The notes below the pieces were generated by a model. That model was not told the DNA's origin, did not search any database, and saw only the letters and a list, made by a program, of their open reading frames with translations. A DNA stretch of 64,000 nt from an uncultured Defluviitaleaceae bacterium (GTDB lineage: Bacteria > Bacillota > Clostridia > Lachnospirales > WRBF01): contig CAZBLK010000004.1 in assembly GCA_964492715.1 (NCBI GenBank), forward strand, positions 16,286 through 80,285. Direction: 5' to 3'. Each line of letters starts with the position of its first letter. Positions within the stretch are counted from its first letter, which is position 1. This document shows, one piece after another, positions 8,097-61,465 of the stretch. The translations under genes were made by a program, and so were the position numbers.

Positions 8097-9443
8097 ATGC
8101 AAGACGATTTGTTTAACGAAAGTGAATTAGATGAGCAGTACATTCTTTCTGAAAAAGAGCGCAAACCTTCGTTTTTAAGCCGCATTGTAGGTTTTTTTAC
8201 CAAGCTTTTTGTTAAAAAGAAAGAGGAAACCGAACAAGTTGACTTTTCTCGTTTCAGCAGCTTTTTATATGGTTTAACCGAAGGAACGGACGTTTATGCC
8301 CAAATTGAAGAAACCGTAATTCTTTGTGACAACGCCCTTAGAACAGCACGCCAACGTGTTACGCTTGCAAAAAAAATTAAAGTAATTGACGACACACTTG
8401 CAGAGCTTGAATGTTTTAACCGTTTGACCGAAGACGAAACGAAAAAGCTTAAAAACATGCTTGAAAGTTTTGTCGCTTTAACGAAGGAAAGAAACGTGCT
8501 TTTGTACCAGCTTACAAGCTTCGACCGTGCGCTTGGCTACATGGTAGACCTTGTGGACGATGCTGAAAACGCCATGCCACAAATTTTGAATGCCGAGAAA
8601 AACCAGCGCATTTTCCGCCAAGACATAGGCCAGCTTGAAGGCGAAAAGACCGACCTTGAATACGAAAGGGAAGCACTCGAAAAAGGCATTTCGTTTTTGA
8701 GCAAGTTTTCTTTGGGGTGCATTGCAGCTTTTGGGCTGTCAGCAGTTTACCTTGGTTATACATTCATTTTGGACAAAGGAAGCATTTTCATTCCAACGAC
8801 TGTTATTGTGCTTTTAACTATAGCTGTTGCTACGTTGATTTACGTTTTTAGAAAGAGAATGGTTTTTGAGCTTACAATGAACATTAGAAAACAGCGGCGG
8901 TTGGTTGAAATGCTTAACAAAAAGTCGGTAGTTTATGCTTACTACACAAACTACCTTCGCTTCGTTTACAAAAAATATAAGGTAACAAATTCGTCAATGC
9001 TTCGCACCACAATTAACGACTTCGAGCACTACAAGCACATTACTTCAAGGATTGACTCTATAAGAAGCATATTGTACGAAACAGAAGCACGAATTGAAGC
9101 TTTCCTCAAACAGAAGAAAATTGTAAACGTTAAAACTACGCTTGAGCAGTTTGCAAAAACTATAAACGTTGAAGATAAGCGTGAATATTATAATGAACTT
9201 ATAGAAAAAAAGGCGGCTTTTGAAGCCGAGCTTTTGGCACTTGACCAAACCAACGCAGAACTTTTTGAAAAAATTGAGGAAAACAACAAAAATGACATTT
9301 CCGAAGAAAAGCTTGTTAATACAATGATAAAAGTTTACTTTGACGAAGTTAGCAGGCTTATGCAAACTATAGATAGTAGTGATGAGCTTGAGTTTTTGGA
9401 GGAAGATGACGAGGTTCAAAACGGAAATTCTTCTATAGCTTAA
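8097..9443 (+). CDS. Coiled-coil membrane protein with two central TM helices (hypothetical)
   Basis: 448 aa. It has a long charged heptad-like N-terminal region and two hydrophobic helices (FSLGCIAAFGLSAVYLGYTFIL and IFIPTTVIVLLTIAVATLIYVF). A second coiled-coil region and an acidic tail follow. Confidence 0.6.
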   Translation: MQDDLFNESELDEQYILSEKERKPSFLSRIVGFFTKLFVKKKEETEQVDFSRFSSFLYGLTEGTDVYAQIEETVILCDNALRTARQRVTLAKKIKVIDDTLAELECFNRLTEDETKKLKNMLESFVALTKERNVLLYQLTSFDRALGYMVDLVDDAENAMPQILNAEKNQRIFRQDIGQLEGEKTDLEYEREALEKGISFLSKFSLGCIAAFGLSAVYLGYTFILDKGSIFIPTTVIVLLTIAVATLIYVFRKRMVFELTMNIRKQRRLVEMLNKKSVVYAYYTNYLRFVYKKYKVTNSSMLRTTINDFEHYKHITSRIDSIRSILYETEARIEAFLKQKKIVNVKTTLEQFAKTINVEDKREYYNELIEKKAAFEAELLALDQTNAELFEKIEENNKNDISEEKLVNTMIKVYFDEVSRLMQTIDSSDELEFLEEDDEVQNGNSSIA

Positions 9444-9487
9444 AAACTATCTTGTATTTTTCCCTTTATTTGACAATGTTTAATCTA

Positions 9488-9525
9488 AAGGCGCATATTA
9501 TCTGCCAATATGCGCCTTTTTTTAT
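9488..9525 (+). terminator. Intrinsic terminator after the 8097-9443 gene
   Basis: Stem aaggcgcatat / atatgcgcctt with loop tatctgcca, followed by a T-run (ttttttta). Confidence 0.85.
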
Positions 9526-9556: not shown

Positions 9557-9585
9557 TAGACAAACTGCACATCAACTATTATAAT
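9557..9585 (+). promoter_or_regulatory. SigmaA-type promoter of the VWA/tubulin-like operon
   Basis: TAGACA (9557-9562), an exact 17-nt spacer and TATAAT (9580-9585), about 30 nt upstream of the VWA gene start. Confidence 0.6.
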
Positions 9586-9614: not shown

Positions 9615-11522
9615 ATGTCAATGCTGCCAGATGTTTTTAAAATGAAAAAGGTTTTAAAATTCTTTACTATTTTTGCAATTGTTACATTTGCACTTAGTTT
9701 ACCTGTGGGTATATTTGCTCAAAATTTGCAAACTATTGCAGAAGTTAATGGTATTGATGTAATTCTGCTAATTGACACAAGCGGTTCTATGCGTGCATCG
9801 GATAAAGGGCGAAATGCAATTGAAGCGGCAAACCTCTTTATCGACATGATGGAAACAAAAAATTCTCGTGTAGGAATTATTGCGTTTAACGACAACGCAA
9901 GAGCTGTCATTGATATGACTGTTTTGAACAGCCAAGAAGACAAAGAGCTTTTGAAACAAAAAATTTCAAGCTTTGAATACGAAGGATACACAGACATTGG
10001 AATGTGGCTTAAAGAAGCTGTAGCTTCAATTCTTGGAAACGTCCGTGACAAAAACAGCCCAATGGTTTTGCTGCTTACAGACGGAAACATTGAAATTGAC
10101 CCTGAAAGTAATGCAAGAACTGCTGAAGCTTCCTACAACGACATAGTCGAAGTTTTGGCAACTGTTGGGAAAAAGCTTCCTATATACACAATTGGCTTAA
10201 ACTATAATGGAAATGTTGACACAGAGCTTTTAAAAACTGTTTCCGAGTCAACAGATGCAAGAAACTACATAGTAAAAGAAGCAAACAACCTTCCACAAAT
10301 TTTTAACGAAATTTTTGCAGACCACATTCAATCTTCGCTTTTGGAGCTTGCTTCTTTTGTTGCAGACGGCGAAAACTACAACGAGGTGAAAATTGACATT
10401 CAAAGCGACTTTGTTGCAGAGGCAAACATAATTATGCTTTCGGAAAAAGAAGTTGCTGACGTTTTGCTTTTTAACCCTCAAGGTGTGCAAACAGAGTTTA
10501 ACCATGATAAAATAAATTTTTCAAAATCTAATAAATATTCTATTATAAAAGTTATTTCACCTGAAAAAGGTGTATGGACACTTAAAGCAAAAGGTGTGAA
10601 GGGCGACAACATTCGTGTTAACCTTATTTATCAGTTTGACTTTGATGTGGAGCTTTCGGCTCAGCCGTCCAAAGACGGTTCGCCTTACGTTTTTACTGGT
10701 AGCCTTATAGTTAATGGTAAAAAAGTTTCTGATGAAACTATTTATAAAGCAACTGCCTCTACTTTGGTTGTAACAGATTCTATGGGCAACGTTTTGGAAG
10801 AGTTTCCCATGAAAGCAACAAAAGATGGGCTTGTTTGTGAGTATACGCCAACTGCTGCTTCAAACATTGAGCTTTTTATACAAACTACTGGTAAAGATTT
10901 CACCAAAAAAAGCAATATATATAAAATTGAATACGTACCAGCAGAAACGCAACAGCCTGTTCCTGTGGAAACTAAAGCACCAGAACAACCACCTTCTGCT
11001 ACCCCTACCCCACCAATGCCCGAACAGGCCGCAAAACCTCTTTTTTCAACTTCGACTATTTTGCTTTTAGCCGTTACTGTTGTAATTGTCGTTTTGCTAA
11101 TTGTGTTTGTAGCGTTCTACCTTAAATCAAACAAAGCAAAGGTATTTACTGGGTATATTGAAGTTAGGGCTATGGATATAAACGAAAAATATACTTCGCT
11201 TGAAACACCTAGCCTTGCTACTTATGTAAACAAAACTTCGCTTTCCGACTTTCTTTCGACAAGCCTAAAGCCAAAAACTGAGCAGGCTGTTAGAGAACTT
11301 CCTTTTAAGGTTGACAACATTTGGCTTTCGCCTGGAAATGCAGGAAATGAGTTTGTAATTAACTTGGAAAACAAGTCGGACTGCATAGTTTCTGACATCT
11401 TTGGTTTTGTAATGGAGCAAAATAAAATTATTTGGCACAAAGACCAGTCTATTGTAATTAAAGGGCGTGGTGATACAACAGGTGCTAAACTTGAAATGAC
11501 TTATAGAACTGACGAAGTTTAA
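9615..11522 (+). CDS. Exported, single-pass membrane-anchored von Willebrand factor A (VWA) domain protein
   Basis: Signal-like N-terminus (KKVLKFFTIFAIVTFALSLPVGIFAQ). MIDAS motif DTSGS at 9774-9788 plus a downstream LLLTDGN. A beta-rich middle region is followed by a Pro-rich linker, a TM helix (ILLLAVTVVIVVLLIVFVAFYL) and a cytoplasmic tail of about 130 aa. The start may be ATG 9621, which has better spacing from GAGGGA. Confidence 0.85.
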   Translation: MSMLPDVFKMKKVLKFFTIFAIVTFALSLPVGIFAQNLQTIAEVNGIDVILLIDTSGSMRASDKGRNAIEAANLFIDMMETKNSRVGIIAFNDNARAVIDMTVLNSQEDKELLKQKISSFEYEGYTDIGMWLKEAVASILGNVRDKNSPMVLLLTDGNIEIDPESNARTAEASYNDIVEVLATVGKKLPIYTIGLNYNGNVDTELLKTVSESTDARNYIVKEANNLPQIFNEIFADHIQSSLLELASFVADGENYNEVKIDIQSDFVAEANIIMLSEKEVADVLLFNPQGVQTEFNHDKINFSKSNKYSIIKVISPEKGVWTLKAKGVKGDNIRVNLIYQFDFDVELSAQPSKDGSPYVFTGSLIVNGKKVSDETIYKATASTLVVTDSMGNVLEEFPMKATKDGLVCEYTPTAASNIELFIQTTGKDFTKKSNIYKIEYVPAETQQPVPVETKAPEQPPSATPTPPMPEQAAKPLFSTSTILLLAVTVVIVVLLIVFVAFYLKSNKAKVFTGYIEVRAMDINEKYTSLETPSLATYVNKTSLSDFLSTSLKPKTEQAVRELPFKVDNIWLSPGNAGNEFVINLENKSDCIVSDIFGFVMEQNKIIWHKDQSIVIKGRGDTTGAKLEMTYRTDEV

Positions 11523-11613: not shown

Positions 11614-14600
11614 ATGAAGTTAGGTGCTGATATAATAAACAACCTCAAGCTTTTAGACTATGAATACGGCGGAGGTATAACTGTTGACGACGCTAGGGTT
11701 GACACTATATCAAAGCCCATACTTATAGTAGGCCTTGGCGGAACAGGCGCAGAAGCGCTTATCCGTGTGAAAAAGTCAATAAACAAGCACTTTAAGCTTC
11801 ACACAGCATCAGATGGGCGCAGGCTTGACCGCCCACTTAACATTGAATATTTAGCAATAGACTCTGATGACAATACAGAAAACTTAAAGTACGACGGCAT
11901 TAGCTTTTCAAGAGAAAGCAAGGAGTTTGTGCTTTTAAACAGCTCAAACCTTACTTCAATTTACAAAAACAAAGACGCCGTTTTTAAAGCGTTCACAAGA
12001 GACTGGATTTCGGACAACTTGCGGCTTCAACAGGTGAAGCACGGCGCAGGCGGCATTAGGCAAGCTGGGCGTTTTCTTTTCTTTATAAACATGAATAATG
12101 TGCTTAGCGTTATTACCGAAAAAATAAACAGGCTTGTTACAAACAGAGAGTCTAAAGACTTGCTGTACGTTTTTATAATTGCTGGCGTTTCTGGAGGTAC
12201 AGGAAGCGGAACTTTTATAGATATTCCTTACATAATTCGTAAAGTAGCAGAAGCAAAGGGCTTTGGCACAGAAAACATTGGTATGCTTTTTTTGCCCGAC
12301 GTTACACTTTCTGACAACACAATAGATGGTGCTGCTGCACTAAACATAAAGGCAAACGGCTTTGCTGGGCTTAAAGAGCTTGACTATTTAATGAACATAG
12401 AGCGAAACGGTGAAGTTTTCAAGCAAAAATATTCTGATATTGAAGTGGAGACAAACCTTCCGCCCTATGACCTTTGCCATTTGATAAGCTCTAAAGACGA
12501 AAGCGGAAAGCTTATTAAAAACGCCAAAAACTACTGCATGAACGTAGCCGCAGAAACTATTATAAACTTTATTGCAAGCGAGGAAATTACAGACGGGCAA
12601 AATTACACAATTAATTCTTACCTGTCTAACATAGAAAACACAAAAACTACTTTTTTAATGACACACAGCCAAAAACAGCCTACAAACTACATTTATAACA
12701 TTGTAGGTACGTCAAGCGCAGTTTTGCCTATTGACTATTTAATTAACCATTTAACATACAAAGTTTTCAACGAGCTTTCACCGCTTTACGAAAACAGCCC
12801 CACACAAGACGAGCTTGTTCAAACTTTGCAAGCTTTAAAAATTGACCTCATTTCAATTGAGCGTGAAATTGAAATGGACAAACCAAAACCAAAAGATTTA
12901 AGCAGGTACGACTACAACGTTTTAAAGCTTCACCCGGAAATTGTTGAAGATGCAATTAATTCTGAAATTTTAAGGAACAAGGAATACATTGATCAAAAGG
13001 CAATGCAAATTATTTTTCGGCTAAAGGAGCAGCTAGAGGGCAATCAAAACATAATTGCCAGCCACTTTACCGACTTGGAGCTTGGCCCTTTTTACGCAAG
13101 AAAAGAGCTTTCTGCTGTTTACGACAACTCGCTTTTAAAGCTAATTGACGGAATTAGAAAGCGTGATTTAGTTCAAAAAAAGGAATCGCCCGAAGCTATA
13201 AAGGCGCTTGAAGCAAAAAAGCAAGCTGCCATGAGCAAGCTTTTGGGCAAATTTGCCATTATGAAAGGTGCAATTGCTGACAATGTAATTGACGCACACG
13301 AACAATATTGCAAGGCGATTATCCGAAACGAAATGTATTCGGCTATTGACAAAATTTACGAAGAAGCGTACAGAATGCTTGAAGAGTTGGGCTACAAAAT
13401 TGTTGACACATATTGCGAGCTTCTTCTTTCGCTTAAAGAACTTTTTGACAAGTTTAAAAACCCCGAAGCAAAAGCAGCAAATGAAACACTCGGCGAAAGC
13501 TTTACATGGGACATTGTGGACGCAAAAGAATTTTGTGAAAGCGTAACGTCGGACCGTGATTTAATGCAGGACATTAACAACAAGGCAATTTTGCAACAAC
13601 TTTTAAAGGACATTATTTCTTCACCCGAAAAATGGATTTTGGGTAAAGGCGCAAACGTTGCCGACAGCATTAACCACTTTATTACAAGAGAGCTTCACGC
13701 AGCAACAACAAAGTCTATGGACTATTACCTTGCGCTAATTGCAAAAGAAAAAAACATGACCGCCCTACAATACATTGAACATAAAGTGGAAGAACTTAAA
13801 ACAAACGCAAAAGTTATGTTCCCAATGAACCACATTCCAACAGGGCTTTACATTGAGTTTCCGCCATACTCGTACCTTTCAATTCCGCACAATGCGCCAA
13901 GCATTCGGAACAAGGTGCGCTCGCTTGCTGGAACAGGCAACAATTACAACTTAAAATTTAGCAAAATGTTAAACCGCATTTATATGTTAAACCTAAAAAT
14001 TGCCGTGCCTTTATACTGCTACAAAGAACTTAACGACTATGAAGCCGTTTATGAAGCTTCGGCCGGCAAGCTTTCTGGGTTGCATTTATATGAGGGCGAA
14101 AGCCCAAACATGAATTGGCGCAACCTCCCCTCCCCCAACTATGACAAGTTGTGGGTTGCTGGCTATGAAAACCGCAATGAGCTTGAAAGAAACGAGCATA
14201 TACGCCAGGTTTTCGACAAAGGCTTGGATTATTCGTTAATTCAGTTTGACGAAAGAAACCGCCGTTACGTTTGCCGTTTCGGCGAGCCAGTAAACATTTT
14301 TGAAGCGTATAACATTAAAAAAGCTGATATTATGGGCAATGCAATTTCAATTACAGATGCAGTTAAGCTTGCTTCCAAGTTGCGCAGTTTTTTGGCGGAC
14401 AAGTCACGGCTTATCCATGAAAAAAGCATTTTTGACGTTGAGTTTCTTGCAGACAAAAAAACTCCAGACAATGAGTATGTAAAAGGTGTTTTCATTTATA
14501 TGCCAGAACTAAACACAAAAATTGCTGAGGAAGTAAAAACTTACGAAGAAGCAACTGAAATTTTAAAGGCTCTTTCCAAAATTGAAGAAACCGAAGTTAA

Positions 14601-14994
14601 GTACAGCAACTTTGCACAGCTTGTTTACATGGGTAAAGTTTTCAAAAGCCGCAAAAACTATAAATATACAATTAACGGTGAAGAAAAAATTCTTTTTACG
14701 CTTGATAATATGCAGGAAAAGTTTGTTGAGTACAAGCTGTTTCAAGCTTTTTTGAAGATGGAGCAAGCAGACGCTACTGTTCTTTTGGCAGAAGCCATTG
14801 ACGAGGAAAACAACTGCTCCGACCAACGTTATGAAGAAATTTTAAGCACAATCGACACAATTATCGAAAGCTACAACGAAAAACTAACTTTGCTTACAGA
14901 CATTTTTTCAAATGAAGCTGGCATGGCACAAACTGTAGCTTTTTACAGCACAATGCTTGAAGTGCTGAACAAAGAAAAAGAAGCGTTAAAATAA
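11614..14994 (+). CDS. Giant tubulin/FtsZ-like GTPase-domain protein (Tubulin_2-type) with a long helical C-terminal extension
   Basis: 1126 aa. GLGGTG at 11731-11748 is T1-loop-like and AGVSGGTGSG at 12181-12210 matches the tubulin signature GGTGSG. GGIRQAGR lies between them. About 850 aa of mostly helical, charged sequence follow. RBS AAGGAG is 8 nt upstream. Confidence 0.8.
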   Translation: MKLGADIINNLKLLDYEYGGGITVDDARVDTISKPILIVGLGGTGAEALIRVKKSINKHFKLHTASDGRRLDRPLNIEYLAIDSDDNTENLKYDGISFSRESKEFVLLNSSNLTSIYKNKDAVFKAFTRDWISDNLRLQQVKHGAGGIRQAGRFLFFINMNNVLSVITEKINRLVTNRESKDLLYVFIIAGVSGGTGSGTFIDIPYIIRKVAEAKGFGTENIGMLFLPDVTLSDNTIDGAAALNIKANGFAGLKELDYLMNIERNGEVFKQKYSDIEVETNLPPYDLCHLISSKDESGKLIKNAKNYCMNVAAETIINFIASEEITDGQNYTINSYLSNIENTKTTFLMTHSQKQPTNYIYNIVGTSSAVLPIDYLINHLTYKVFNELSPLYENSPTQDELVQTLQALKIDLISIEREIEMDKPKPKDLSRYDYNVLKLHPEIVEDAINSEILRNKEYIDQKAMQIIFRLKEQLEGNQNIIASHFTDLELGPFYARKELSAVYDNSLLKLIDGIRKRDLVQKKESPEAIKALEAKKQAAMSKLLGKFAIMKGAIADNVIDAHEQYCKAIIRNEMYSAIDKIYEEAYRMLEELGYKIVDTYCELLLSLKELFDKFKNPEAKAANETLGESFTWDIVDAKEFCESVTSDRDLMQDINNKAILQQLLKDIISSPEKWILGKGANVADSINHFITRELHAATTKSMDYYLALIAKEKNMTALQYIEHKVEELKTNAKVMFPMNHIPTGLYIEFPPYSYLSIPHNAPSIRNKVRSLAGTGNNYNLKFSKMLNRIYMLNLKIAVPLYCYKELNDYEAVYEASAGKLSGLHLYEGESPNMNWRNLPSPNYDKLWVAGYENRNELERNEHIRQVFDKGLDYSLIQFDERNRRYVCRFGEPVNIFEAYNIKKADIMGNAISITDAVKLASKLRSFLADKSRLIHEKSIFDVEFLADKKTPDNEYVKGVFIYMPELNTKIAEEVKTYEEATEILKALSKIEETEVKYSNFAQLVYMGKVFKSRKNYKYTINGEEKILFTLDNMQEKFVEYKLFQAFLKMEQADATVLLAEAIDEENNCSDQRYEEILSTIDTIIESYNEKLTLLTDIFSNEAGMAQTVAFYSTMLEVLNKEKEALK

Positions 14995-15008: not shown

Positions 15009-16952
15009 ATGCCAAAAAAGATACATTGTAACGAAATTAAACAGCGTAGCCCAATTGTTTACATCTTTGTTGGTGAAATTGATGAAGGCATAAAAGACGG
15101 CATAAAACATATACATAAAAAGCGTGTTGGTGCAGGCGGCATAGGCTACATTACGGCTTACCCCCAGAACACACGTGAAGAAATTGTTTCCGAAGTTAAT
15201 TTGCTTAGACGTGAGTTTATCAAAAATACTTACTCTGCCGCTGGAGAAATTAAGTTAAACTATGTCGTTTCGGCAGACAATGCTGACGGGCTTTTTTTAG
15301 CAACAGTTAAATCTTGGCTTAACGAACATTTTAAGCTTTTGTACCCAGCGGCCATTGCGACAGATGTTTTTTTGCTTTTAGATGATGTAAATGTGTCACC
15401 AAACGAACACCGAAACGCTGTTTTAAAAATTGCTGACGAAATGGGCATGCAAGACTCGGCAATGGTTTACATTTTGTCCAACCTTAATAACAGTGGCATA
15501 TATAATGAGGAAAGTAAGCTAAATATTATAAATTCAATTGCACTAATTGCACTTTTTAAGGAATATGCTTCACCGCAACCTGATGGTACAACTAGATACA
15601 TTTATAACGAACACTTTTTTAAAGAAGATTGCTTTCGCCAAGGAAATGGCGGAAAGTTTGCAACGCTTGGGCACTATAAACTTAAAAAGCCTATGGGCTT
15701 AATAAAAAAAATTGTGCTGACTAAGCTTCTTTTGCTAATGCAAAATGGAAAAGGCTTTGACGGCGGCTTCGACCCAACGATAAACACAACAAGCAATCAG
15801 TTGAACTTAACTTTAGATGACTTGCTTGCACTACCTTTAAACCGCACAATTTCTGCTGGCGAAAAAACAAGCATGTCAAACATGGGTGCATTGCAAGCTT
15901 TATTCGGCAAACGGCTTGATTTATTTTACAAAGTGAATGAGCAGTCACAAGCAGATAATGTTTTAGTTGAGCTTAAAAAATATTTTGAGGAAGCTGTTTG
16001 CAGCGTAAACGTAGGTTTTTTTAAAACGTTTGACGAAACATCGCCAGACGGTGCACTGACAAAGAGGCTTTTGCAAATGCTTGATGAATTAAAATACGCT
16101 GCAAAAATCGCCGAAGCCCAATTTGAAAGCTGGAAAGGGCAACCAATTTCCGACAACGGCAAGATTTCTCTTTCGGTTTTAACTTCAATTCAGGCATTCC
16201 CTTACAAGCTTGCCGAAAAATATTTGAAATTTAAGCACACTTTGTCAAGCTATAAACACCAAATAAACCAGCTTGAAAAAGCAATTGAAGAAGTAAAACA
16301 GTTTCATTTTAAGCTTGCTTTAACCAAACAAAAAATAGACGAAATTGTGTCACGCTATAACAAAGAAATTGACGAAACAGAAGAAAAGCTTATGCCTATG
16401 CAAAGCTCTGTTCGCAAGTTTTACGAAGCAGCACTCATTGACTGCATCGGTGAAAGCATGACAGAATTTTTAAACATATATTCAAGCCTTTTTAACCTTT
16501 CAGAGGAAGGAAAATTTTCTTTATTCATTGAAAAGCTAGAAACGTTTGTTGAAGAAAATGTTTTCAAAAAACACACGGCGTTCCAAAAGCCATTTGCCGA
16601 AAGTACGGCGCAAATTCTTTGCTTCAACAGCGAAGCCCAAACTGACGATGAAGCTTATCGGCTTATTTTTGACGAGATTGTAGCTGGCAAAACGTTTAAC
16701 GTGTTTTTAAAAACAGGCATGTCAAGGCTTCACTGTGAAATTAACGTTATGCTTGGCACAGAAAGCAAGCTTGCACACACAATTAGGTCGGGCGCTGCTT
16801 CTTGCGCAAACAAAGTAAATATTTTTTACGAAGCTGAAAAGGAAATCGGTGACGTCGACATAATTTACCACGCAGGTGGCTTTTCGCAGGAAGATTTATA
16901 TTACAACGAGCTTTTTCCAGAAAAACTTAACGGAGACAGGCATGGACGCTGA
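15009..16952 (+). CDS. Hypothetical 647-aa protein, possibly a degenerate (glycine-loop-less) paralog of the upstream tubulin-like protein
   Basis: Starts 14 nt after the upstream stop. The N-terminal SPIVYIFVGEIDEG sits where the neighbour has KPILIVGLGGTGAE. Alternating beta/alpha-like segments (LNYVVSADNADG, DVFLLLDDV, MVYILSNLNNSG) precede a helical C-terminal half. The similarity is weak. Confidence 0.55.
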   Translation: MPKKIHCNEIKQRSPIVYIFVGEIDEGIKDGIKHIHKKRVGAGGIGYITAYPQNTREEIVSEVNLLRREFIKNTYSAAGEIKLNYVVSADNADGLFLATVKSWLNEHFKLLYPAAIATDVFLLLDDVNVSPNEHRNAVLKIADEMGMQDSAMVYILSNLNNSGIYNEESKLNIINSIALIALFKEYASPQPDGTTRYIYNEHFFKEDCFRQGNGGKFATLGHYKLKKPMGLIKKIVLTKLLLLMQNGKGFDGGFDPTINTTSNQLNLTLDDLLALPLNRTISAGEKTSMSNMGALQALFGKRLDLFYKVNEQSQADNVLVELKKYFEEAVCSVNVGFFKTFDETSPDGALTKRLLQMLDELKYAAKIAEAQFESWKGQPISDNGKISLSVLTSIQAFPYKLAEKYLKFKHTLSSYKHQINQLEKAIEEVKQFHFKLALTKQKIDEIVSRYNKEIDETEEKLMPMQSSVRKFYEAALIDCIGESMTEFLNIYSSLFNLSEEGKFSLFIEKLETFVEENVFKKHTAFQKPFAESTAQILCFNSEAQTDDEAYRLIFDEIVAGKTFNVFLKTGMSRLHCEINVMLGTESKLAHTIRSGAASCANKVNIFYEAEKEIGDVDIIYHAGGFSQEDLYYNELFPEKLNGDRHGR

Positions 16953-17577
16953 AAGATTTATTATTCAAACCGAAGCACCGCTTAACGAGCAAATTGCACA
17001 GCTAGAACACTTTCTTGACAAAAAAAATAGTTTAGAACTTAAATGGAAGTGGCCAAAAAGTGCTGACATAAAGCTTGCAGCAGTTTTTTTTGTTGAAACC
17101 GGGGAAGAACAGCTTGAAACGCTTATTCGTGAAGGTTTTCCGTGTACCCTGGTAACAAAGTCAATTGACATGCACTACAAGGGTATGCTTGAAGTTCAAA
17201 AGCGAATGTACAAAGTTTACCCTGCAAAATTTGGGGCAGACAATAAAATTATTTTAGTTCCGCAAGAAGAAGGCAATGCTACACCGCTTGTTTTAAGGAA
17301 AATTCAGGTTTCATATACCGTTAAGTATAAGCCAATTTTAGGAAGCGAATACAAACAAGCGACAATAAAGCTTGCACCTTCCGAAAAGCTTGACATTTCG
17401 GAAAGCTTGGCCTACACAACAAGCCGAAGCAATCGTCTTTTTCCGCTTGAACAAGCTATGTGCACAGGTAATACTCCGTTTTACATAAAGAAATATGATA
17501 CAATTCAAATTCACGCTTTAGCGCAGTTTAAAGACGTAATACAGCTCCAAGAAGCAAAACTGCAAAAGGAGGATTGA
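16942..17577 (+). CDS. Hypothetical 211-aa protein, translationally coupled
   Basis: ATG at 16942 overlaps the upstream stop (16950-16952) by 11 nt. The longer track ORF from 16876 would overlap further. No recognisable motifs; appears beta-rich. Confidence 0.55.
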   Translation: MDAERFIIQTEAPLNEQIAQLEHFLDKKNSLELKWKWPKSADIKLAAVFFVETGEEQLETLIREGFPCTLVTKSIDMHYKGMLEVQKRMYKVYPAKFGADNKIILVPQEEGNATPLVLRKIQVSYTVKYKPILGSEYKQATIKLAPSEKLDISESLAYTTSRSNRLFPLEQAMCTGNTPFYIKKYDTIQIHALAQFKDVIQLQEAKLQKED

Positions 17578-19091
17578 CAGCCTTGCAAGAAAAAAAAGTT
17601 AAAGATATTCTTTGCCCCTACTGCTGCCACAGGTTTCACCCAAACGAAGCACACTTTCGGCTTAATGCGCCATGCACAGACGAGCCGCCCTCCCCTTCCG
17701 CTAAAAAAGGAAAGAAAAAGTCTGCAAAAGACGAGGGCTTAGGCAAAGTGCTTGACGAAAAGCTTTACCGCTACAACATGGACGTGCTGAAAAACGACAG
17801 CAGCGAAGCAGAAAAAAACTCAATGCAATTTTTGGCTGTCAGCCTTGAAACAGAAGGGGTTTCACCGTCTGAATTTGACATTGAAAAGTACGGCTTTACA
17901 CAAAAAGTTACATATACAATATATAACGAAAATTCGCAAAGCCACGAAAGCCCAAAAACTTTCACCACGCAAAAAAGGCTTTGCCCAAACTGCCACAACC
18001 AGCTTCCAATAGGCTACGGCTTGCGTGAAACTATTTTAATTTCGATAATCGGCGACGCAAGGGCAGGCAAGTCCATTTACTTGACAATGCTAATTAACGA
18101 GCTTGAAAGCAACCCCGACTTTGTTTCAAAGCTTAATTTTATAGGCGACCAGCACGCAAAGGACAGCATTTTTGAAAGCTACCAAAAGCCTCTTTTGCAC
18201 AATCACGTTTTGGTTGACTCTACAAAGCGCAAAAAAATTCCTCCTTTTTCTTACAACTTTTGGTACCAGTACCGTGGCGAGGACGGCATTTTAAAGGAAA
18301 ACACAATTGACATAATTTTTTACGACATTGCAGGCGAAGACCTTAGAGACGACCACGCCATGCGCCAAAACGGATTTAATATAAGGGATTCTTCTGGGCT
18401 TATTTTCCTTATAGACCCAACGAGCTTTAAAAAAATGGAAGACGTTTTCATGCTTGCCGACAGAAGCTTAATTGACAATAAACCAACGGACAACTCGACA
18501 TCAAGCATTTTTACTGCAATGTACAACTACTTCCTTGGGCTTGACACAGAAAAAAGCGACATACCCGTAGCAATGGCAATTTCAAAGGCGGACCTTTTTC
18601 GCTACGTAAACATGAGCTTTTTTGACGAAAAGCCAGAAAGCCGAATTAGAAAAGTTTTGGAAGGTGAAAGCTACAACGGCTACGTCCACATGAACAGCGC
18701 AAGGGGCATAAACACAGAGGTACGAGAGCTTTTGTCGTACCTTGGCGAGGAACAAGTTTTGAACAACGCTTTGGGCTGCTTTAAAAACGTGGGCTGCTTT
18801 GCTGTGTCGTCACTTGGAAAAAAGCCTGTTGTGGAAACTATAACCAACGAAAAAACAGGCGAAACTACCGAGAAAGGTTATGTTGACGGCGAGCTAGAAC
18901 CGTTTAGGGTGAAAGAGCCGTTTTACTGGCTACTTATGAAGAACAACTTGCTATACAGGTTTGACAACGGCGTTTACTATAAAAATGGCGAAACACCTGT
19001 TGTTGAAAAAGGAAAAGCAGGCTTTGTAGAAGTATTAAAAAAGATGTTTTCTTCCCTGTTTGCTTTTTCGTTTAATAAAAGAAAACGCTAA
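17574..19091 (+). CDS. Split zinc-ribbon + P-loop small-GTPase-fold protein
   Basis: The TTG start overlaps the upstream TGA (TTGA) and is preceded by AAAGGAGGA. CPYC (17613-17624) and CPNC (17982-17993) are separated by about 120 aa. G1 is GDARAGKS (18051-18074), G3 is DIAGED (18324-18341), G4 is SKAD (18582-18593) and G5-like is VSSLG. Confidence 0.75.
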   Translation: MTALQEKKVKDILCPYCCHRFHPNEAHFRLNAPCTDEPPSPSAKKGKKKSAKDEGLGKVLDEKLYRYNMDVLKNDSSEAEKNSMQFLAVSLETEGVSPSEFDIEKYGFTQKVTYTIYNENSQSHESPKTFTTQKRLCPNCHNQLPIGYGLRETILISIIGDARAGKSIYLTMLINELESNPDFVSKLNFIGDQHAKDSIFESYQKPLLHNHVLVDSTKRKKIPPFSYNFWYQYRGEDGILKENTIDIIFYDIAGEDLRDDHAMRQNGFNIRDSSGLIFLIDPTSFKKMEDVFMLADRSLIDNKPTDNSTSSIFTAMYNYFLGLDTEKSDIPVAMAISKADLFRYVNMSFFDEKPESRIRKVLEGESYNGYVHMNSARGINTEVRELLSYLGEEQVLNNALGCFKNVGCFAVSSLGKKPVVETITNEKTGETTEKGYVDGELEPFRVKEPFYWLLMKNNLLYRFDNGVYYKNGETPVVEKGKAGFVEVLKKMFSSLFAFSFNKRKR

Positions 19092-19179: not shown

Positions 19180-19255
19180 AACATGGGTTGGGCCCCCCAT
19201 GTTTTGCTAATAAATTTGGGGCAGGGCAAGGATGCCCGCCTAATCTCAAGGAGGA
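19180..19255 (+). promoter_or_regulatory. Flagellin 5' leader: 5'-proximal stem-loop plus two CsrA-type GGA sites
   Basis: Perfect hairpin aacatggg/cccatgtt at 19180-19203. Hairpin gggca-AGGA-tgccc presents GGA in its loop (19224-19237). A second AAGGAGGA overlaps the SD (19247-19255). Confidence 0.55.
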
Positions 19256-19262
19256 AAAACAC

Positions 19263-20807
19263 ATGAGTAATATGGTTATTAACACAAACGTTCTCGCTCT
19301 TAACAGCCACCGTGCATTAAAAGGCGTTGGCGGTACTCAAGCTAAGGCTTCTGAAAGACTTTCTAGCGGTCTTCGCATCAACCGTGCGGCTGACGACGCT
19401 GCTGGCTTGGCTATTTCTGAAAAAATGCGCAGCCAAATCCGTGGTCTTGACCAAGCTTCAAGAAACTCTCAAGACGGCATTAGCTTAATTCAAACTGCTG
19501 AAGGTGCTTTGCAAGAAACTGAAAACATGCTTCAACGTATGCGTGAGCTTACTGTTCAAGCTTCAAATGACACTCTTGAACCAGAAGATAGAGACAAAAT
19601 CGCTCTTGAGCTTAACCAGCTTTCAGACGAAATTGACAAGACTGCTGAAAAGACAGAGTTCAACAAGAAGAAGCTTATCGATGGTAGCTGGTCTTCTCAA
19701 TCACTTTACTTCCAAACTGGTGCTAACGCTGGCCAAGGCCTTACAATTAACATTGGTGCTATGGATGCTAAAACTCTTGGCGTTACAAAGGCTTCAATTG
19801 GCGGTGTTGTAGGCAATGCTGGTGCTGGTGCTGCTGCTGGCACTACAATTACTGCTGGTAATGCTATCTTTACTGCTGCTGGTGCTGCTGCTAGTACAAT
19901 TGACTTTGCTTTGTCTACAACTGCTTCTGTTAATGCTGGAAACTACATCATCAGCGACAAATCTAGGTTTGAAATCTCTGAAGATGGCAAAGTTACTCTT
20001 TTTGGTTTTGATGGTCATGAAAATGGTTCAGTTATCGACATGAAGACGTTAAAATCTGGCTTCACACTAGAAGCTGATAATGGTTCTACTCTTGCATTTG
20101 CCCCTTCTGCTTTAGGTAATGGGTCTCCAGGTGAATTAACATACACTGCTAGTGCTACTGCAGGTAATGCAATCACTGCTGACCCTGGTTCAGTAGGAGC
20201 AACACAAGTTTTATCAACTAGCGGTGATAATGTTCTTGTTATTACAGGCGGTAGCAAATCTGACGGTACTTATGATAAGGCAAATTCAACTTATAAATTT
20301 AGTGGTTCATCTACAGTTTATGCCTTAGATATAAGCGGAAAAGCAATTACTCTTCAAAAGGGTAAGGAATATACTACTGCTGAACTTAAAGATTTATATG
20401 GCGGAGCTGCTCCAACTACTATGCAATTTACTGTTGACGGCAAGCAATATGAAATTACTTTTGGCACTTCGCTTGTATCTGCTGGTGCATCCGCTGTTGT
20501 AAAAGGCTCTGCTTCAGGTTCTGGCGCATCAATTTCAAAGCTTACTGACACTATCGACGCAGCTATTGAAAAAGTTTCTGCACAACGTGCAAACCTTGGT
20601 GCATACCAAAACAGACTTGAGCACACAATTAAGAACCTTGACGTAGCATCAGAAAACTTGTCAGCTTCTGAGTCTCGTATCCGTGACACAGACATGGCTA
20701 AAGAAATGATGACTATGACAAAGAGCAGCGTTCTTTCACAAGCTGCTATGTCAATGCTTGCACAAGCAAACCAAGGACCACAAAACTTGTTGCAATTGTT
20801 GAGATAA
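19263..20807 (+). CDS. fliC: Flagellin
   Basis: Conserved N-terminus (MSNMVINTNVLALNSHRAL...RLSSGLRINRAADDAAGLAISEKM) and C-terminus (QRANLGAYQNRLEHTI...LSQA...LLQLLR), with an Ala/Gly/Thr-rich variable middle. ATG 19263 sits behind AAGGAGGA. The track start 19188 is an artefactual extension. Confidence 0.95.
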   Translation: MSNMVINTNVLALNSHRALKGVGGTQAKASERLSSGLRINRAADDAAGLAISEKMRSQIRGLDQASRNSQDGISLIQTAEGALQETENMLQRMRELTVQASNDTLEPEDRDKIALELNQLSDEIDKTAEKTEFNKKKLIDGSWSSQSLYFQTGANAGQGLTINIGAMDAKTLGVTKASIGGVVGNAGAGAAAGTTITAGNAIFTAAGAAASTIDFALSTTASVNAGNYIISDKSRFEISEDGKVTLFGFDGHENGSVIDMKTLKSGFTLEADNGSTLAFAPSALGNGSPGELTYTASATAGNAITADPGSVGATQVLSTSGDNVLVITGGSKSDGTYDKANSTYKFSGSSTVYALDISGKAITLQKGKEYTTAELKDLYGGAAPTTMQFTVDGKQYEITFGTSLVSAGASAVVKGSASGSGASISKLTDTIDAAIEKVSAQRANLGAYQNRLEHTIKNLDVASENLSASESRIRDTDMAKEMMTMTKSSVLSQAAMSMLAQANQGPQNLLQLLR

Positions 20808-57982: not shown

Positions 57983-60900
57983 ATGACAAACAAATTTACT
58001 ACTGCTTTGTTGGCTTTTGCTTTTACTCTACTTTTCACATCGTTGTTTACAGCACCAGTGAAAGCTTACGGCACAAACATTGTTGCACGCACAAGTATAC
58101 TAAACCTTTCCGAAAACCCCACAGAGGACAAGCTTTCAACTCAAGGTTGGAAATGGGATTCTAGCACAAGCACATTGTTTTTAAACGGGGCTAACATAAA
58201 CGTTTCCCAAACTAACGAATATTACACAGCAGTTCTTCTTCCTAAAAACTCCACAATAATTATTAACGGCGAAAATTTTATTACATACGGCACAGACAAA
58301 TACTCTTACGCAATTTACTGCCAAGGTGACGGCGACCTTACAATAAAAGGTAGCGGCTCTCTTACAGCAACATCTGGAGAACTTACTTATTCATTTACAG
58401 AAACTATGTCGGCAGGCATTTATGTAAACGGCAATTTGCACATAAAAAGCGGAACAATAAATGCAGTAGGTGGAGATGCTTCAAACGGATATGTTAGCTG
58501 TGGAATTTTTTCTAAATCATTATATGTTTCGGGTGGCTCGCTTACTTCAACTAGCGGTAACTTTGACGAAAGCAGTGGCGGCGGAAGTTTTGGAATTTGC
58601 CTTGATGAACACGCAAAACCAATTTTTTCAGGCGGAACAACAAAAGTAACTGCTTTTTCGGACGAAGCAAATAATATATATGGTCGTGCCTTTAAATTTG
58701 AACTTGAAGATATAGAAAACAACTTTCAAAGCAATTTTCAAAATGACGTTGGCTTAACCGAAAACACTTTTCCTTATTTTTACTTGTTTGAGGCAACAAC
58801 AGGCAAAACTAAATATACCGCAACATTTCATAAAAACGACGGTTCTTTAGATTTTACAACACAAACATTTTTACATGCCCAACCCGAACCTCTAAATGCA
58901 AACACCTTTGCATTGTCTGGCTATTCATTCAGTGGTTGGTCAACAGACCCCAACGGTTTAGACACACCTTATTCAGGTGGACAAACTGTTTCTTTAACTG
59001 GAAACTTAGACTTCTACGCACAGTGGGAAGCTTCCATCAACAAATCAGCAGTAATTAGCGGAAGCCCAAGCTTAACTGCTCTAACAGAAGGCACAACAAG
59101 CTTTACACTTTCAACATCAAACGTTCTAACTGGCACAACTTTTAAAGTTACAGGTTTACCAACTGGCGTAACACAAGTTACAGCAGAAACAAGCGGCGAC
59201 AATACAAAAGTGATTTTGGCAGCTTCGTCGGCAACACCGTTTGTTAAAAACTCAGAACTTGGTGTAGTGTTTAGCGATGATAATATTGTAACTACTGGCA
59301 CAGTAAACTTAACAATGACTAAAAAACAATCAGAGCCTTTTCAAGTAGTAACAAGCAACGGAACGTTTAACGAAATTTACATAATTTGTGAAGGTTTTGG
59401 CAAGCTTACCGAAGCAAACTTTAACATAACCTTCAATGGTGAACCAGTTAATATATCATCTGTTTCGGCATATACAGGCGAGCGTTATATTTTAACAACA
59501 GAACCCCTTGATGGTGACAACAATAAAAAGCTTTCTGTTAAAATGCAAGGCGAATTAACAAATTACTTACCGTATGAAGAAACTGTAACAATTACCCCAA
59601 CAGCAATTGAAACAGTAAATGCAGAAACCCCTGTTTTATTATACAATTACGACATAACAACATTTAATTATTTTACTGGCGAAGAAGCAATAGAACTAAA
59701 TGCTCTGTCAGAAGTTTCTGACGGCGGACAATTAACATACCAATGGTACGTTAATGATGTAAACATAAGCATAGGCGGTTTACCAATTGAAGAAAATGGT
59801 ACATGTGCATCATACACCCCAAGCACTAATGCTTCAGGCACAGCATACTATTACTGTGTCGTCACAAACACAAACGAAGAAGTAACGGGGCTTAAAACAG
59901 CATCTGTAAAAACAGTTGTGTTTACAGTAAACGTAGCAGACGAAGCAAACACATTTCTGTTAAATTTTGAAGCCAACGAAGGAACAGGGACAATGTCTCC
60001 GCAACAATTTACTGCTGGAATTAGCCAACCAATTTGGCAAAACAGCTTTACAAGAAGCCGCTACCGCTTTGAGAGTTGGAACACTGCTGTCGATGGCAGC
60101 GGAACACGCTACTCAGATTGCCAAAGCATAACGTTGTATAGCAATTTAACTTTATATGCACAGTGGGTAATTCACTCGCCTAGCAGTGCGCCAAGTAATT
60201 CTAACAGTATTATAACTTATAGTAATGCAAAAATCAATACCTTAAATGAAAATATTTCTGTTGAAGACACAATAAAAAACGCAGAAATTGGAACAACTGT
60301 AAATGTTTTTTTAAACACAGAAACGTCAGTACCAAAAAGTGTTTTTGAAGCCGCAAAAGACAAAAACATAAACGTGGTCTTAAACTTTAAAAACTACAGT
60401 TGGGCTTTTAACGGCACGTCTGTTAAACTTCTAAACAACAGCTTAAATGAATATAACCTAGCGGTTAATACCATTAAAAGCACGCAAATTTCCAACCTTT
60501 CAGAAGGAAAAGAAGTTTTACAGCTTAATTTAGCACACAACGGAGCTTTACCATTTAAAGGAGTTTTAACATACCCAGTTAACAATAAGCTTAACAGTAA
60601 AACGCTATACCTTTCATATTTTAACCCAGTTACAAACAGGCTTGAATACAGTGGTATAGGCACTGTTGAAAAAGGAAATGTCAAGCTTGAATTTAGTCAC
60701 GCCTCTCAATATATTTTAAGCGAAACCGTTTTGTCTGGCACTTTTGTAAACAAGGAATTTGTAGGTGCAGATAATGACATATACACCTACGTTCCGTACT
60801 TTACAGACGCACAGAGTGGAGACAATTCGCTTGTAAAACAAAGCACTGTAAATGAAAAAAGTGTTTCATTTGTTATGCAAGATGATGGTTACTTTTACTT

Positions 60901-61465
60901 TAAAAATAACAAAAAGAACTTTAAAGACACAAGCACACATTGGGCAAAAAATGCAATTAGCTACATCACTTCAAGAGAAATTTTTTATGGAACAGGTGAT
61001 GAAATTTTTGACCCAAACAAAGAAATGACAAGGGCGATGTTTGTTACTGTTTCAGCAAAGCTTGATAATGCTTTGATAGATAACTACACCGTTCCCCCTT
61101 TTGAAGACTTCTCTGTAGAAACGTGGTATGGAAAGTACGTTGCTTGGGCATACGATACAGGCTTGCTTGGCTTTATTGAAAGCAAAACGTTCGAGCCCAA
61201 CAAGCCAATTACAAGGGAAGAAGCTGCATATATCCTAGACGTTTACATAAGCAAAATGGAAACTAAACCTTCATACAGCTATAACGTCCCTTACTTTGCA
61301 GACATTAGCGGCACAAGTGAATTTGCCCAAAATTCAGTTATGAACATGCGAAGATACGGAATTTTCAGCGGTATCGGTGACAATTTATTTTTGCCCAAGG
61401 AAAACATTAGCAGGGCAAGCGCAGCACAAATTTTAATGAACTTTATTTGCGCTTCTGTAAAGTAG
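57983..61465 (+). CDS. Large S-layer-homology (SLH) anchored cell-surface protein
   Basis: Signal peptide ending PVKAYG. Two Listeria-Bacteroides-type repeats (YTATFHKNDG...GYSFSGWSTDPNG...FYAQW and FLLNFEANEGTG...RYRFESWNT...LYAQW). Three C-terminal SLH modules (FKDTSTHWAKNAISY, FEDFSVETWYGKYVAWAY and FADISGTSEFAQNSVMNM). Confidence 0.85.
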   Translation: MTNKFTTALLAFAFTLLFTSLFTAPVKAYGTNIVARTSILNLSENPTEDKLSTQGWKWDSSTSTLFLNGANINVSQTNEYYTAVLLPKNSTIIINGENFITYGTDKYSYAIYCQGDGDLTIKGSGSLTATSGELTYSFTETMSAGIYVNGNLHIKSGTINAVGGDASNGYVSCGIFSKSLYVSGGSLTSTSGNFDESSGGGSFGICLDEHAKPIFSGGTTKVTAFSDEANNIYGRAFKFELEDIENNFQSNFQNDVGLTENTFPYFYLFEATTGKTKYTATFHKNDGSLDFTTQTFLHAQPEPLNANTFALSGYSFSGWSTDPNGLDTPYSGGQTVSLTGNLDFYAQWEASINKSAVISGSPSLTALTEGTTSFTLSTSNVLTGTTFKVTGLPTGVTQVTAETSGDNTKVILAASSATPFVKNSELGVVFSDDNIVTTGTVNLTMTKKQSEPFQVVTSNGTFNEIYIICEGFGKLTEANFNITFNGEPVNISSVSAYTGERYILTTEPLDGDNNKKLSVKMQGELTNYLPYEETVTITPTAIETVNAETPVLLYNYDITTFNYFTGEEAIELNALSEVSDGGQLTYQWYVNDVNISIGGLPIEENGTCASYTPSTNASGTAYYYCVVTNTNEEVTGLKTASVKTVVFTVNVADEANTFLLNFEANEGTGTMSPQQFTAGISQPIWQNSFTRSRYRFESWNTAVDGSGTRYSDCQSITLYSNLTLYAQWVIHSPSSAPSNSNSIITYSNAKINTLNENISVEDTIKNAEIGTTVNVFLNTETSVPKSVFEAAKDKNINVVLNFKNYSWAFNGTSVKLLNNSLNEYNLAVNTIKSTQISNLSEGKEVLQLNLAHNGALPFKGVLTYPVNNKLNSKTLYLSYFNPVTNRLEYSGIGTVEKGNVKLEFSHASQYILSETVLSGTFVNKEFVGADNDIYTYVPYFTDAQSGDNSLVKQSTVNEKSVSFVMQDDGYFYFKNNKKNFKDTSTHWAKNAISYITSREIFYGTGDEIFDPNKEMTRAMFVTVSAKLDNALIDNYTVPPFEDFSVETWYGKYVAWAYDTGLLGFIESKTFEPNKPITREEAAYILDVYISKMETKPSYSYNVPYFADISGTSEFAQNSVMNMRRYGIFSGIGDNLFLPKENISRASAAQILMNFICASVK

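Follow-up and report, generated by a model that had tools for sequence, protein, structure and literature searches.

We analyzed a stretch of 64,000 nucleotides (nt) from an uncultured Defluviitaleaceae bacterium (contig CAZBLK010000004.1, positions 16,286 to 80,285; hereafter the window), in which a gene for a VWA membrane protein (9615..11522, + strand) is followed at short gaps or overlaps by genes for a Tubulin_2 (FtsZl1) protein, a protein of 647 amino acids (aa), a protein of 211 aa and a DO-GTPase2 protein, in that order. The VWA protein is predicted, with good support, to be a type I-like (N-out, C-in) bitopic membrane protein with the VWA domain outside the cell and the tail in the cytoplasm, because hydropathy, a positive-inside bias and an ectodomain which folds like those of extracellular VWA receptors and adhesins all pointed to the outside-in topology which the original prediction had proposed. 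With moderate confidence we favor the reading that this protein is a bitopic membrane receptor in which a ligand would drive docking of the other cassette proteins on the tail.

A Kyte-Doolittle (KD) hydropathy scan (19-residue mean, threshold 1.6) revealed that only two segments of the VWA protein exceeded the threshold, residues ~12-38 and ~472-508. The first belongs to a signal-like N-terminus (aa 1-35; 9615..9719, + strand) composed of a basic n-region (KMKKVLK), a hydrophobic core and a Pro/Gly-containing c-region, with a candidate cleavage site between IFA and QN which, on a heuristic reading, follows the small-x-small pattern. AlphaFold2 (AF2) modeled residues 8-33 as a helix followed by a low-confidence linker at residues 34-42, and no lipobox Cys was present in the N-terminus. 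The second segment, which peaked at a KD value of 3.56 over residues 482-500 while the best value elsewhere in the protein was 1.21, corresponds to a single transmembrane (TM) helix (aa 477-503; 11043..11123, + strand; AF2 helix 479-504) and is followed by KSNKAK. No LPXTG motif was found in the open reading frame (ORF), which ends in a folded tail of ~130 aa instead of the short basic tail of the sortase-anchored class. Among 139 non-redundant relatives the N-terminal hydrophobic segment, preceded by a mean of 2.7 Lys/Arg residues, was present in 137, and the mean number of Lys plus Arg in 15 residues was 1.2 before the TM helix compared with 3.9 after it; the count was higher after the helix in 129 relatives and lower in one (Wilcoxon p 6e-23). 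The signal-like N-terminus expected from the original prediction was therefore borne out by its basic n-region, its h-region and its retention among relatives.

The Pfam VWA family (PF00092) matched residues 48-231 with a score of 67.4 bits against a cut-off of 23.8 (E 2.4e-18), and in the AF2 model of the whole protein (mean predicted local distance difference test (pLDDT) score 88.3, 75-sequence alignment) the VWA domain extended over aa 47-237 (9753..10325, + strand) with pLDDT >90. Its metal ion-dependent adhesion site (MIDAS) consists of DTSGS at residues 54-58, which supplies D54, S56 and S58, together with T126 and D156. The five ligand positions of this DTSGS...TDG motif, noted beforehand from the sequence, were invariant in the 75-sequence alignment; the site is complete and is predicted to bind ligand in a metal-dependent manner. 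The region between the VWA domain and the stalk, which had been described only as beta-rich, was resolved in the model into two beta-sandwich domains. The first (aa 240-341; 10332..10637, + strand) has a weak likeness to the domain which follows VWA in hemicentin and CLCA proteins (GBD_Hemicentin, E 0.0055, under the Pfam cut-off), and TIGR00868 hCaCC matched residues 49-325 with an E of 6e-11. The second covers aa 343-438 (10641..10928, + strand) and leads into a disordered Pro/Thr/Glu-rich stalk of ~40 aa (aa 439-476; 10929..11042, + strand). The stalk peptide PVPVETKAPEQPPSATPTPPMPEQ, at residues 448-471, lies directly ahead of the TM helix as had been claimed, and pLDDT fell below 50 at residues 453-475; in the 139 relatives the mean P/T/S/E/Q/A fraction of the 40 aa before the TM helix was 0.58. 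When the whole model was compared with the PDB by Foldseek, the closest ectodomain folds were the pilus-tip adhesins SpaC, RrgA and Mfa5, and further matches were to the extracellular VWA proteins ANTXR2/CMG2 (VWA plus Ig-like domain), CLCA1, alpha2-delta, inter-alpha-inhibitor heavy chain and BatB.

The tail domain (aa 504-635; 11124..11519, + strand) was modeled as a beta-sandwich particular to this family, FHA-like in fold and carrying an insert of two helices. In the whole-protein model residues 514-631 formed a compact domain with a pLDDT of about 96, and the tail modeled alone from 31 sequences gave a pLDDT of 95.6 and a predicted TM-score (pTM) of 0.88. The original prediction had called the tail beta-rich, which agrees with this confident fold, and had guessed that it might be FHA- or Ig-like. 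The FHA half of the guess was favored, with weak scores that are given below, as FHA domains made up nearly all of the 30 best fold matches in the PDB, with probabilities up to 0.99 (among them Rad53 FHA1, kanadaptin, MDC1, Chk2, KIF1C, Pml1 and Mek1, plus IRF-3, which has the related SMAD/FHA fold), whereas an Ig-like fold was rejected because no Ig domain was among the best matches. The window tail matched no Pfam family at E up to 10 and none of 31 related tails matched one, a viral structure library gave nothing meaningful, and the tail profile searched against the PDB returned only the FHA domain of Dun1 at a sub-threshold E of 0.75, in an alignment which pairs the conserved N-K-S motif of the family with the FHA D-K-S-x-N-G loop but does not keep the canonical His and Asn. 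Since neither the Pfam nor the PDB sequence searches gave a significant match, the tail could not be placed in any family by sequence. G513 was the sole invariant residue in the tail alignments. A search of the tail profile against 1.84 billion representative proteins gave 103 clusters, in which full-length matches (about 580-830 aa) carried the domain at the C-terminus just past the TM helix and shorter matches were mostly gene fragments; judged from these clusters, the domain is confined to the VWA-TM-tail protein family and to minimal TM plus tail forms.

A protein search of 5.8 billion proteins identified 89 relatives, about 79 with the full layout, and a locus scan using one genome per species gave 485 loci with relatives, of which 80 were kept from Defluviitaleaceae, Lachnospiraceae, Clostridium, Lutispora, Paenibacillus, Brevibacillus, Bacillus and Aneurinibacillus. 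Every complete ORF at the kept loci had a late TM helix followed by 114-137 residues which matched a hidden Markov model of the tail (E 1e-8 to 1e-39). As an N-terminal hydrophobic segment, DxSxS, a single late TM helix and the tail were common to all complete relatives examined, the layout of the VWA protein is more than a chance arrangement. The tubulin-like gene was found directly 3' of the VWA gene in 69 of the 78 loci with enough downstream sequence (median distance 39 nt), the nine exceptions being eight Brevibacillus paralogue loci and one short contig, and both the tubulin-like and the GTPase genes were present in 63 of 83 loci. Defluviitaleaceae-type contigs with different flanking genes had the same five-gene order, and in relatives the cassette occupied differing genomic places and was patchily distributed. 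In a mirror-tree comparison all parts of the cassette correlated (r 0.78-0.98), and the cassette was co-inherited as a whole.

The second gene of the cassette encodes the Tubulin_2/FtsZ-like-1 protein of 1126 aa (11614..14994, + strand; PF13809, E 2.9e-64), which has a long helical C-terminal region and no TM helix. Few members of the tubulin superfamily have diverged as far as the FtsZ-like-1 (Tubulin_2) proteins, none of which has, to our knowledge, a known function. No C-terminal tether peptide of the FtsZ kind was found on the tubulin-like protein, the C-terminus of which is a conserved helical region. The third gene encodes the 647-aa conserved protein (15009..16952, + strand), which has no TM helix, belongs to no Pfam family and has homologues at the same position in 20 loci; P15, D119, S157, K184, G300, G623 and F625 were invariant. 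This protein was considered as a possible second, degenerate tubulin of the kind which Kaur et al. (2020) describe in firmicutes; profile-profile comparison with the tubulin domain (hhalign) gave a probability of 0.2, that is no similarity, and one of 15 homologues hit Tubulin_2, at a marginal E of 0.034. The fourth gene (16942..17577, + strand) encodes a conserved protein of about 211 aa with no Pfam family. The ORF as listed began at GTG 16876, which falls inside the preceding gene, while ATG 16942 gives about 211 aa and was preferred because this length fits the homologues (204-217 aa).

The fifth gene (17574..19091, + strand) encodes the P-loop GTPase of the DO-GTPase2 family, 505 aa in length (PF19993, 30.4 bits against a cut-off of 27, E 3.9e-7), with CxxC pairs at residues 14 and 137, Walker A GDARAGKS and Walker B DIAGE. 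Its start codon, TTG 17574, overlaps the stop of the 211-aa gene by 4 nt, an overlap which suggests that the two genes are translationally coupled. The original prediction had spoken of cytoplasmic GTPases downstream, and this held for one P-loop GTPase and one tubulin-like protein; the other two are proteins of unassigned fold. No hydrophobic segment was found in any of the four downstream proteins (maximum KD 1.41), so that among the five cassette products the VWA protein alone is a membrane protein. The GTPase gene closes with ~22 codons (19020-19088) for an amphipathic peptide of Trp/Phe and Lys/Arg residues, FVEVLKKMFSSLFAFSFNKRKR in the window copy, which was also present in all other GAP1-less cassettes (loci L001, L005, L007-L011 and L014-L020; e.g., WWKRLFGLR, LWRRILAFFKR) and absent from the GAP1-containing Paenibacillus/Clostridium-type loci. 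We take this peptide to resemble the membrane-targeting sequences of MinD and FtsA and consider it a candidate membrane-binding peptide. GAP1 itself was not detected in the six neighboring proteins, which matched no such family at E up to 0.1, and ten large ORFs from other parts of the window gave no match to it at E up to 0.001; of the related loci, L001 and L002 also lacked it and L003 contained it. As GAP1, a second vWA and a recognizable second tubulin are all missing, the window cassette is, by its predicted gene content, a reduced, GAP1-less firmicute tubulin-containing DO-GTPase system, the smallest version among the loci compared. By comparison, a relative in Clostridium sp. CF012 had the full set, with GAP1-N2 twice, two GTPases and a second, CoxE-like vWA.

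The VWA gene appears to begin a transcription unit of its own. The ORF at 9615..11522 named in the original prediction exists and encodes 635 aa from ATG 9615, but its start is probably ATG 9621, which gives 633 aa, because a Shine-Dalgarno-like GAGGG directly abuts ATG 9615 and stands at a proper spacing of 6 nt from ATG 9621, and because an identical database protein (P0001) is 633 aa in length and so begins there. Upstream are a terminator-like hairpin with a 13 bp stem and T run (9487..9519, + strand), 3' of a gene for a 448-aa protein, and a promoter-like site, TAGACA-17-TATAAT (9557..9585, + strand), which agrees with the consensus at 11 of 12 positions and lies 30 nt 5' of the VWA start codon; the latter is a consensus match only, and such sites were no commoner in the region than in shuffled sequence. 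The 448-aa protein (8097-9443) is a coiled-coil protein with a central hydrophobic (TM) region which matches no family, and no homologue of it was found at any of 83 related loci. It was rejected as a cassette member on account of the intervening terminator and promoter and this lack of homologues, and on the same grounds the VWA gene was taken as the first of its unit.

Taken together with the gene order, these predictions can be arranged into the receptor reading as follows. A Sec-type signal or anchor segment would place the ectodomain outside the cytoplasmic membrane, where the MIDAS metal would bind an acidic group of an external ligand, e.g., a cell-surface, wall or invader protein. The ligand would cluster receptors and bring their FHA-like tails together, clustering being the only signal which one TM helix would easily pass. 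Clustered tails might then form a phospho-independent docking platform on which the tubulin-like coiled-coil protein and the GTPase would assemble at the membrane in a GTP-dependent manner, with the C-terminal peptide of the GTPase as a candidate membrane binder of its own. Ligand binding, contact of the tail with its partners and the output are steps which we infer, the physical link between tail and partners because the genes are adjacent and the VWA protein is the only membrane protein of the cassette. A bolder form of this model, which we consider unlikely, would make the system a bacterial counterpart of integrin/ANTXR outside-in signaling, in which MIDAS engagement clusters the phospho-independent tails, and these directly nucleate a tubulin-superfamily polymer at the inner membrane face, with the DO-GTPase as a membrane-bound switch. 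If true, this coupling of a receptor to a tubulin would be the first transmembrane case described in prokaryotes.

Several results count against a receptor that acts through a docking tail. The FHA matches of the tail were weak (best E 0.013, TM-score 0.41-0.50, root-mean-square deviation 5-9 A), no FHA family was matched by any of the 31 tails in Pfam, and the phosphothreonine-binding residues of FHA domains (Gly-Arg, Ser-x-x-His, Asn) were not conserved in the tail alignments. Because weak fold matches were combined with the lack of an FHA sequence signature and of these residues, the tail can be called FHA-like by fold only, an assignment from the model which is weakly supported, and it is unlikely to read phosphothreonine. 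Copies of the tail domain are also present where no tubulin gene is adjacent, at the eight Brevibacillus paralogue loci and in stand-alone TM plus tail genes. In the mirror-tree comparison the tail correlated no better than the ectodomain and gave no tail-specific signal, and as all parts of the cassette correlated this comparison was uninformative on contact between the tail and its partners. We found no experimental study on any family member in the literature.

The main rival to the receptor reading is one we hold to be possible if doubtful. Here the tail would be a permanent membrane anchor of tubulin-like filaments, as ZipA, FtsA and SepF are for FtsZ, while the ectodomain would hold the assembly to the cell wall or S-layer, and membrane or envelope remodeling would be constitutive with no ligand trigger. 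The architecture and synteny described above fit this equally well. The position of the cassette among housekeeping genes with normal GC content, and the SLH-domain protein encoded in the window, which points to an S-layer, are in keeping with such a structural role, and membrane remodeling has already been proposed for vWA/FtsZl1 operons (PMC2875224). A permanent anchor is harder to reconcile with the tubulin-like protein, which has neither the disordered linker nor the conserved C-terminal peptide that FtsZ tethers bind, and with the varying genomic places and patchy spread of the cassette, as is usual for accessory systems.

Quite unlikely, in our judgment, is that the protein is an independent surface adhesin, the tail of which serves its own oligomerization, sorting or stability, so that the genes are co-transcribed without physical contact of their products. 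That the closest ectodomain folds are pilus-tip adhesins, that paralogues and minimal TM plus tail genes exist with no adjacent tubulin gene and that the mirror-tree gave no signal specific to the tail would all agree with an adhesin. It would leave unexplained why, in both Clostridia and Bacilli, Tubulin_2 has stayed directly behind VWA (in 69 of 78 loci, 39 nt apart at the median), and why a highly ordered, family-restricted cytoplasmic domain of 130 aa is conserved in every complete member; the VWA protein is moreover the only route of the cassette to the cell exterior. Finally, an inverted or non-exported topology is highly improbable. In it the VWA domain would be cytoplasmic and, like the vWA proteins of MoxR-vWA systems, would bind peptides as a co-chaperone, with the tail outside. 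In its favor, some vWA proteins of related conflict systems are cytoplasmic, and a second, CoxE-like vWA is present in the fuller Clostridium locus. Against it, the basic n-region and the Lys/Arg cluster after the second segment place both ends in the cytoplasm, a pattern which holds in 129 of 139 relatives; the ectodomain is like that of extracellular VWA proteins, and Pro-rich stalks are typical of wall-spanning spacers.

Relatives outside the canonical arrangement took two forms. Brevibacillus paralogues with VWA, TM helix, tail and an extra Big_9 Ig domain had no tubulin gene nearby (loci L043, L028, L030, L041, L048, L055, L065 and L076). In the Brevibacillus fortis paralogue (L043, 9986-12932) the 3' end is overlapped by a convergent Ser/Thr kinase gene and a SUKH-family gene precedes it. 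A canonical tubulin locus was found besides the paralogue in B. fortis NRRL NRS-1210 (L041/L054) and in Brevibacillus sp. FIR094 (L048/L082). The minimal forms, a few of which look genuine, were stand-alone proteins with no VWA domain, P0093 consisting of a signal peptide, Pro stalk, TM helix and tail, and P0136 and P0166 of TM helix and tail only. Genes for minimal proteins composed of a short exported segment, a TM helix and the tail were located at L084 8001-8603, L086 1902-2360 and L087 8001-8570; among such genes one lies near ftsW, divIC and yabP/yabQ, and another is 3.5 kb from a lone DO-GTPase2-like gene.

Within the window the cassette lies amid housekeeping genes at normal GC content, and base composition gave no signal of horizontal transfer. 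A Ser/Thr kinase was considered as an FHA partner, and no Hanks motif was present in the window. PADLOC defense models gave two weak matches only (E 0.002-0.005). A flagellin-like gene (19188-20807) is the next gene after that for the GTPase, and no terminator-like site lies between the two; it probably starts at an internal ATG, because the listed TTG adds about 25 residues before the typical N-terminus MSNMVINTN. A protein of 1160 aa encoded at 57983-61465 has three SLH domains and Listeria-Bacteroides repeats, which suggests an S-layer-bearing monoderm envelope that the VWA ectodomain and stalk would have to span.

The type of system described here is already known as a prediction from comparative genomics, its extracellular vWA included (PMC2875224; PMC7159879). 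Makarova and Koonin (2010; PMC2875224) defined the FtsZl1 family, described operons in which it occurs with a diverged GTPase and with MIDAS-intact vWA proteins, some of them bearing signal or TM segments, and suggested membrane remodeling as the function, as a prediction only; a reviewer objected in the same paper that an exported vWA cannot touch a cytoplasmic FtsZl1. According to Kaur, Burroughs, Iyer and Aravind (2020; PMC7159879), the firmicute tubulin versions are GAP1-N2-type DO-GTPase conflict systems in which the vWA is extracellular, with two tubulin genes and two vWA genes as the theme in firmicutes. What the present analysis adds is a definition of the FHA-like domain in the cytoplasm, a minimal cassette that does without GAP1, and a peptide on the GTPase that is a candidate for membrane targeting. 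These sharpen the hypothesis and define a cytoplasmic domain but do not amount to a new type of system. By joining an external MIDAS domain through a single TM helix to a folded, FHA-like domain in the cytoplasm, the VWA family offers a concrete, testable answer to the question raised by the reviewer in 2010, and the compact GAP1-less five-gene cassette, as the smallest version seen, provides a practical starting point for the study of tubulin/GTPase systems.

In common with the vWA/FtsZl1 operons (PMC2875224) the window cassette has a MIDAS-intact vWA with signal and TM segments beside an FtsZl1 gene and a diverged P-loop GTPase. Unlike those operons it has no OmpA or kinase gene, and where the 2010 account left the topology unresolved, the single TM helix and folded cytoplasmic tail of the window protein would form a bridge. 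With the GAP1-N2-type systems (PMC7159879) it shares three components: a DO-GTPase in which a Walker B glutamate occurs with CxxC pairs resembling a zinc ribbon, a tubulin that ends in a coiled coil, and a vWA membrane protein described as extracellular. It differs from them in having no detectable GAP1, only one vWA, one recognizable tubulin and one GTPase, and in the extra C-terminal amphipathic peptide on that GTPase; no cytoplasmic FHA-like tail is described in the available part of Kaur et al. (2020; PMC7159879).

Among better known proteins, the sortase-anchored pilus-tip adhesins SpaC and RrgA, which were top fold matches, likewise have a Gram-positive extracellular MIDAS VWA domain, but the window protein lacks LPXTG, is predicted to remain membrane-embedded and carries a large domain on the cytoplasmic side. 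PpkA, of the H1 type VI secretion system of Pseudomonas aeruginosa, is a single-pass protein too; its VWA domain lies beyond the cytoplasmic membrane and signals to a module in the cytoplasm, in a pathway which uses the FHA protein Fha1. In PpkA that module is a Ser/Thr kinase located N-terminal to the TM helix, whereas no kinase motif was found in the window. YscD/MxiG of type III secretion and EssC of type VII secretion carry FHA-fold domains beside a TM helix on the cytoplasmic face which serve in protein docking, several of them without the phosphothreonine-binding residues; the window tail has no sequence match to these (Pfam, E up to 10), and its orientation and partners differ. A parallel in overall design is with ANTXR1/2 and the integrin I-domains, where a MIDAS VWA likewise lies outside the cell and is followed by an Ig-like domain, a single TM helix and a tail in the cytoplasm; ANTXR2 was among the best fold matches. 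The tails of ANTXR1 and integrins link to the cytoskeleton. There is no sequence kinship of the window protein with them beyond the VWA fold, and in place of such tails it has a folded, FHA-like domain for which the candidate partner is a tubulin homologue, not actin.

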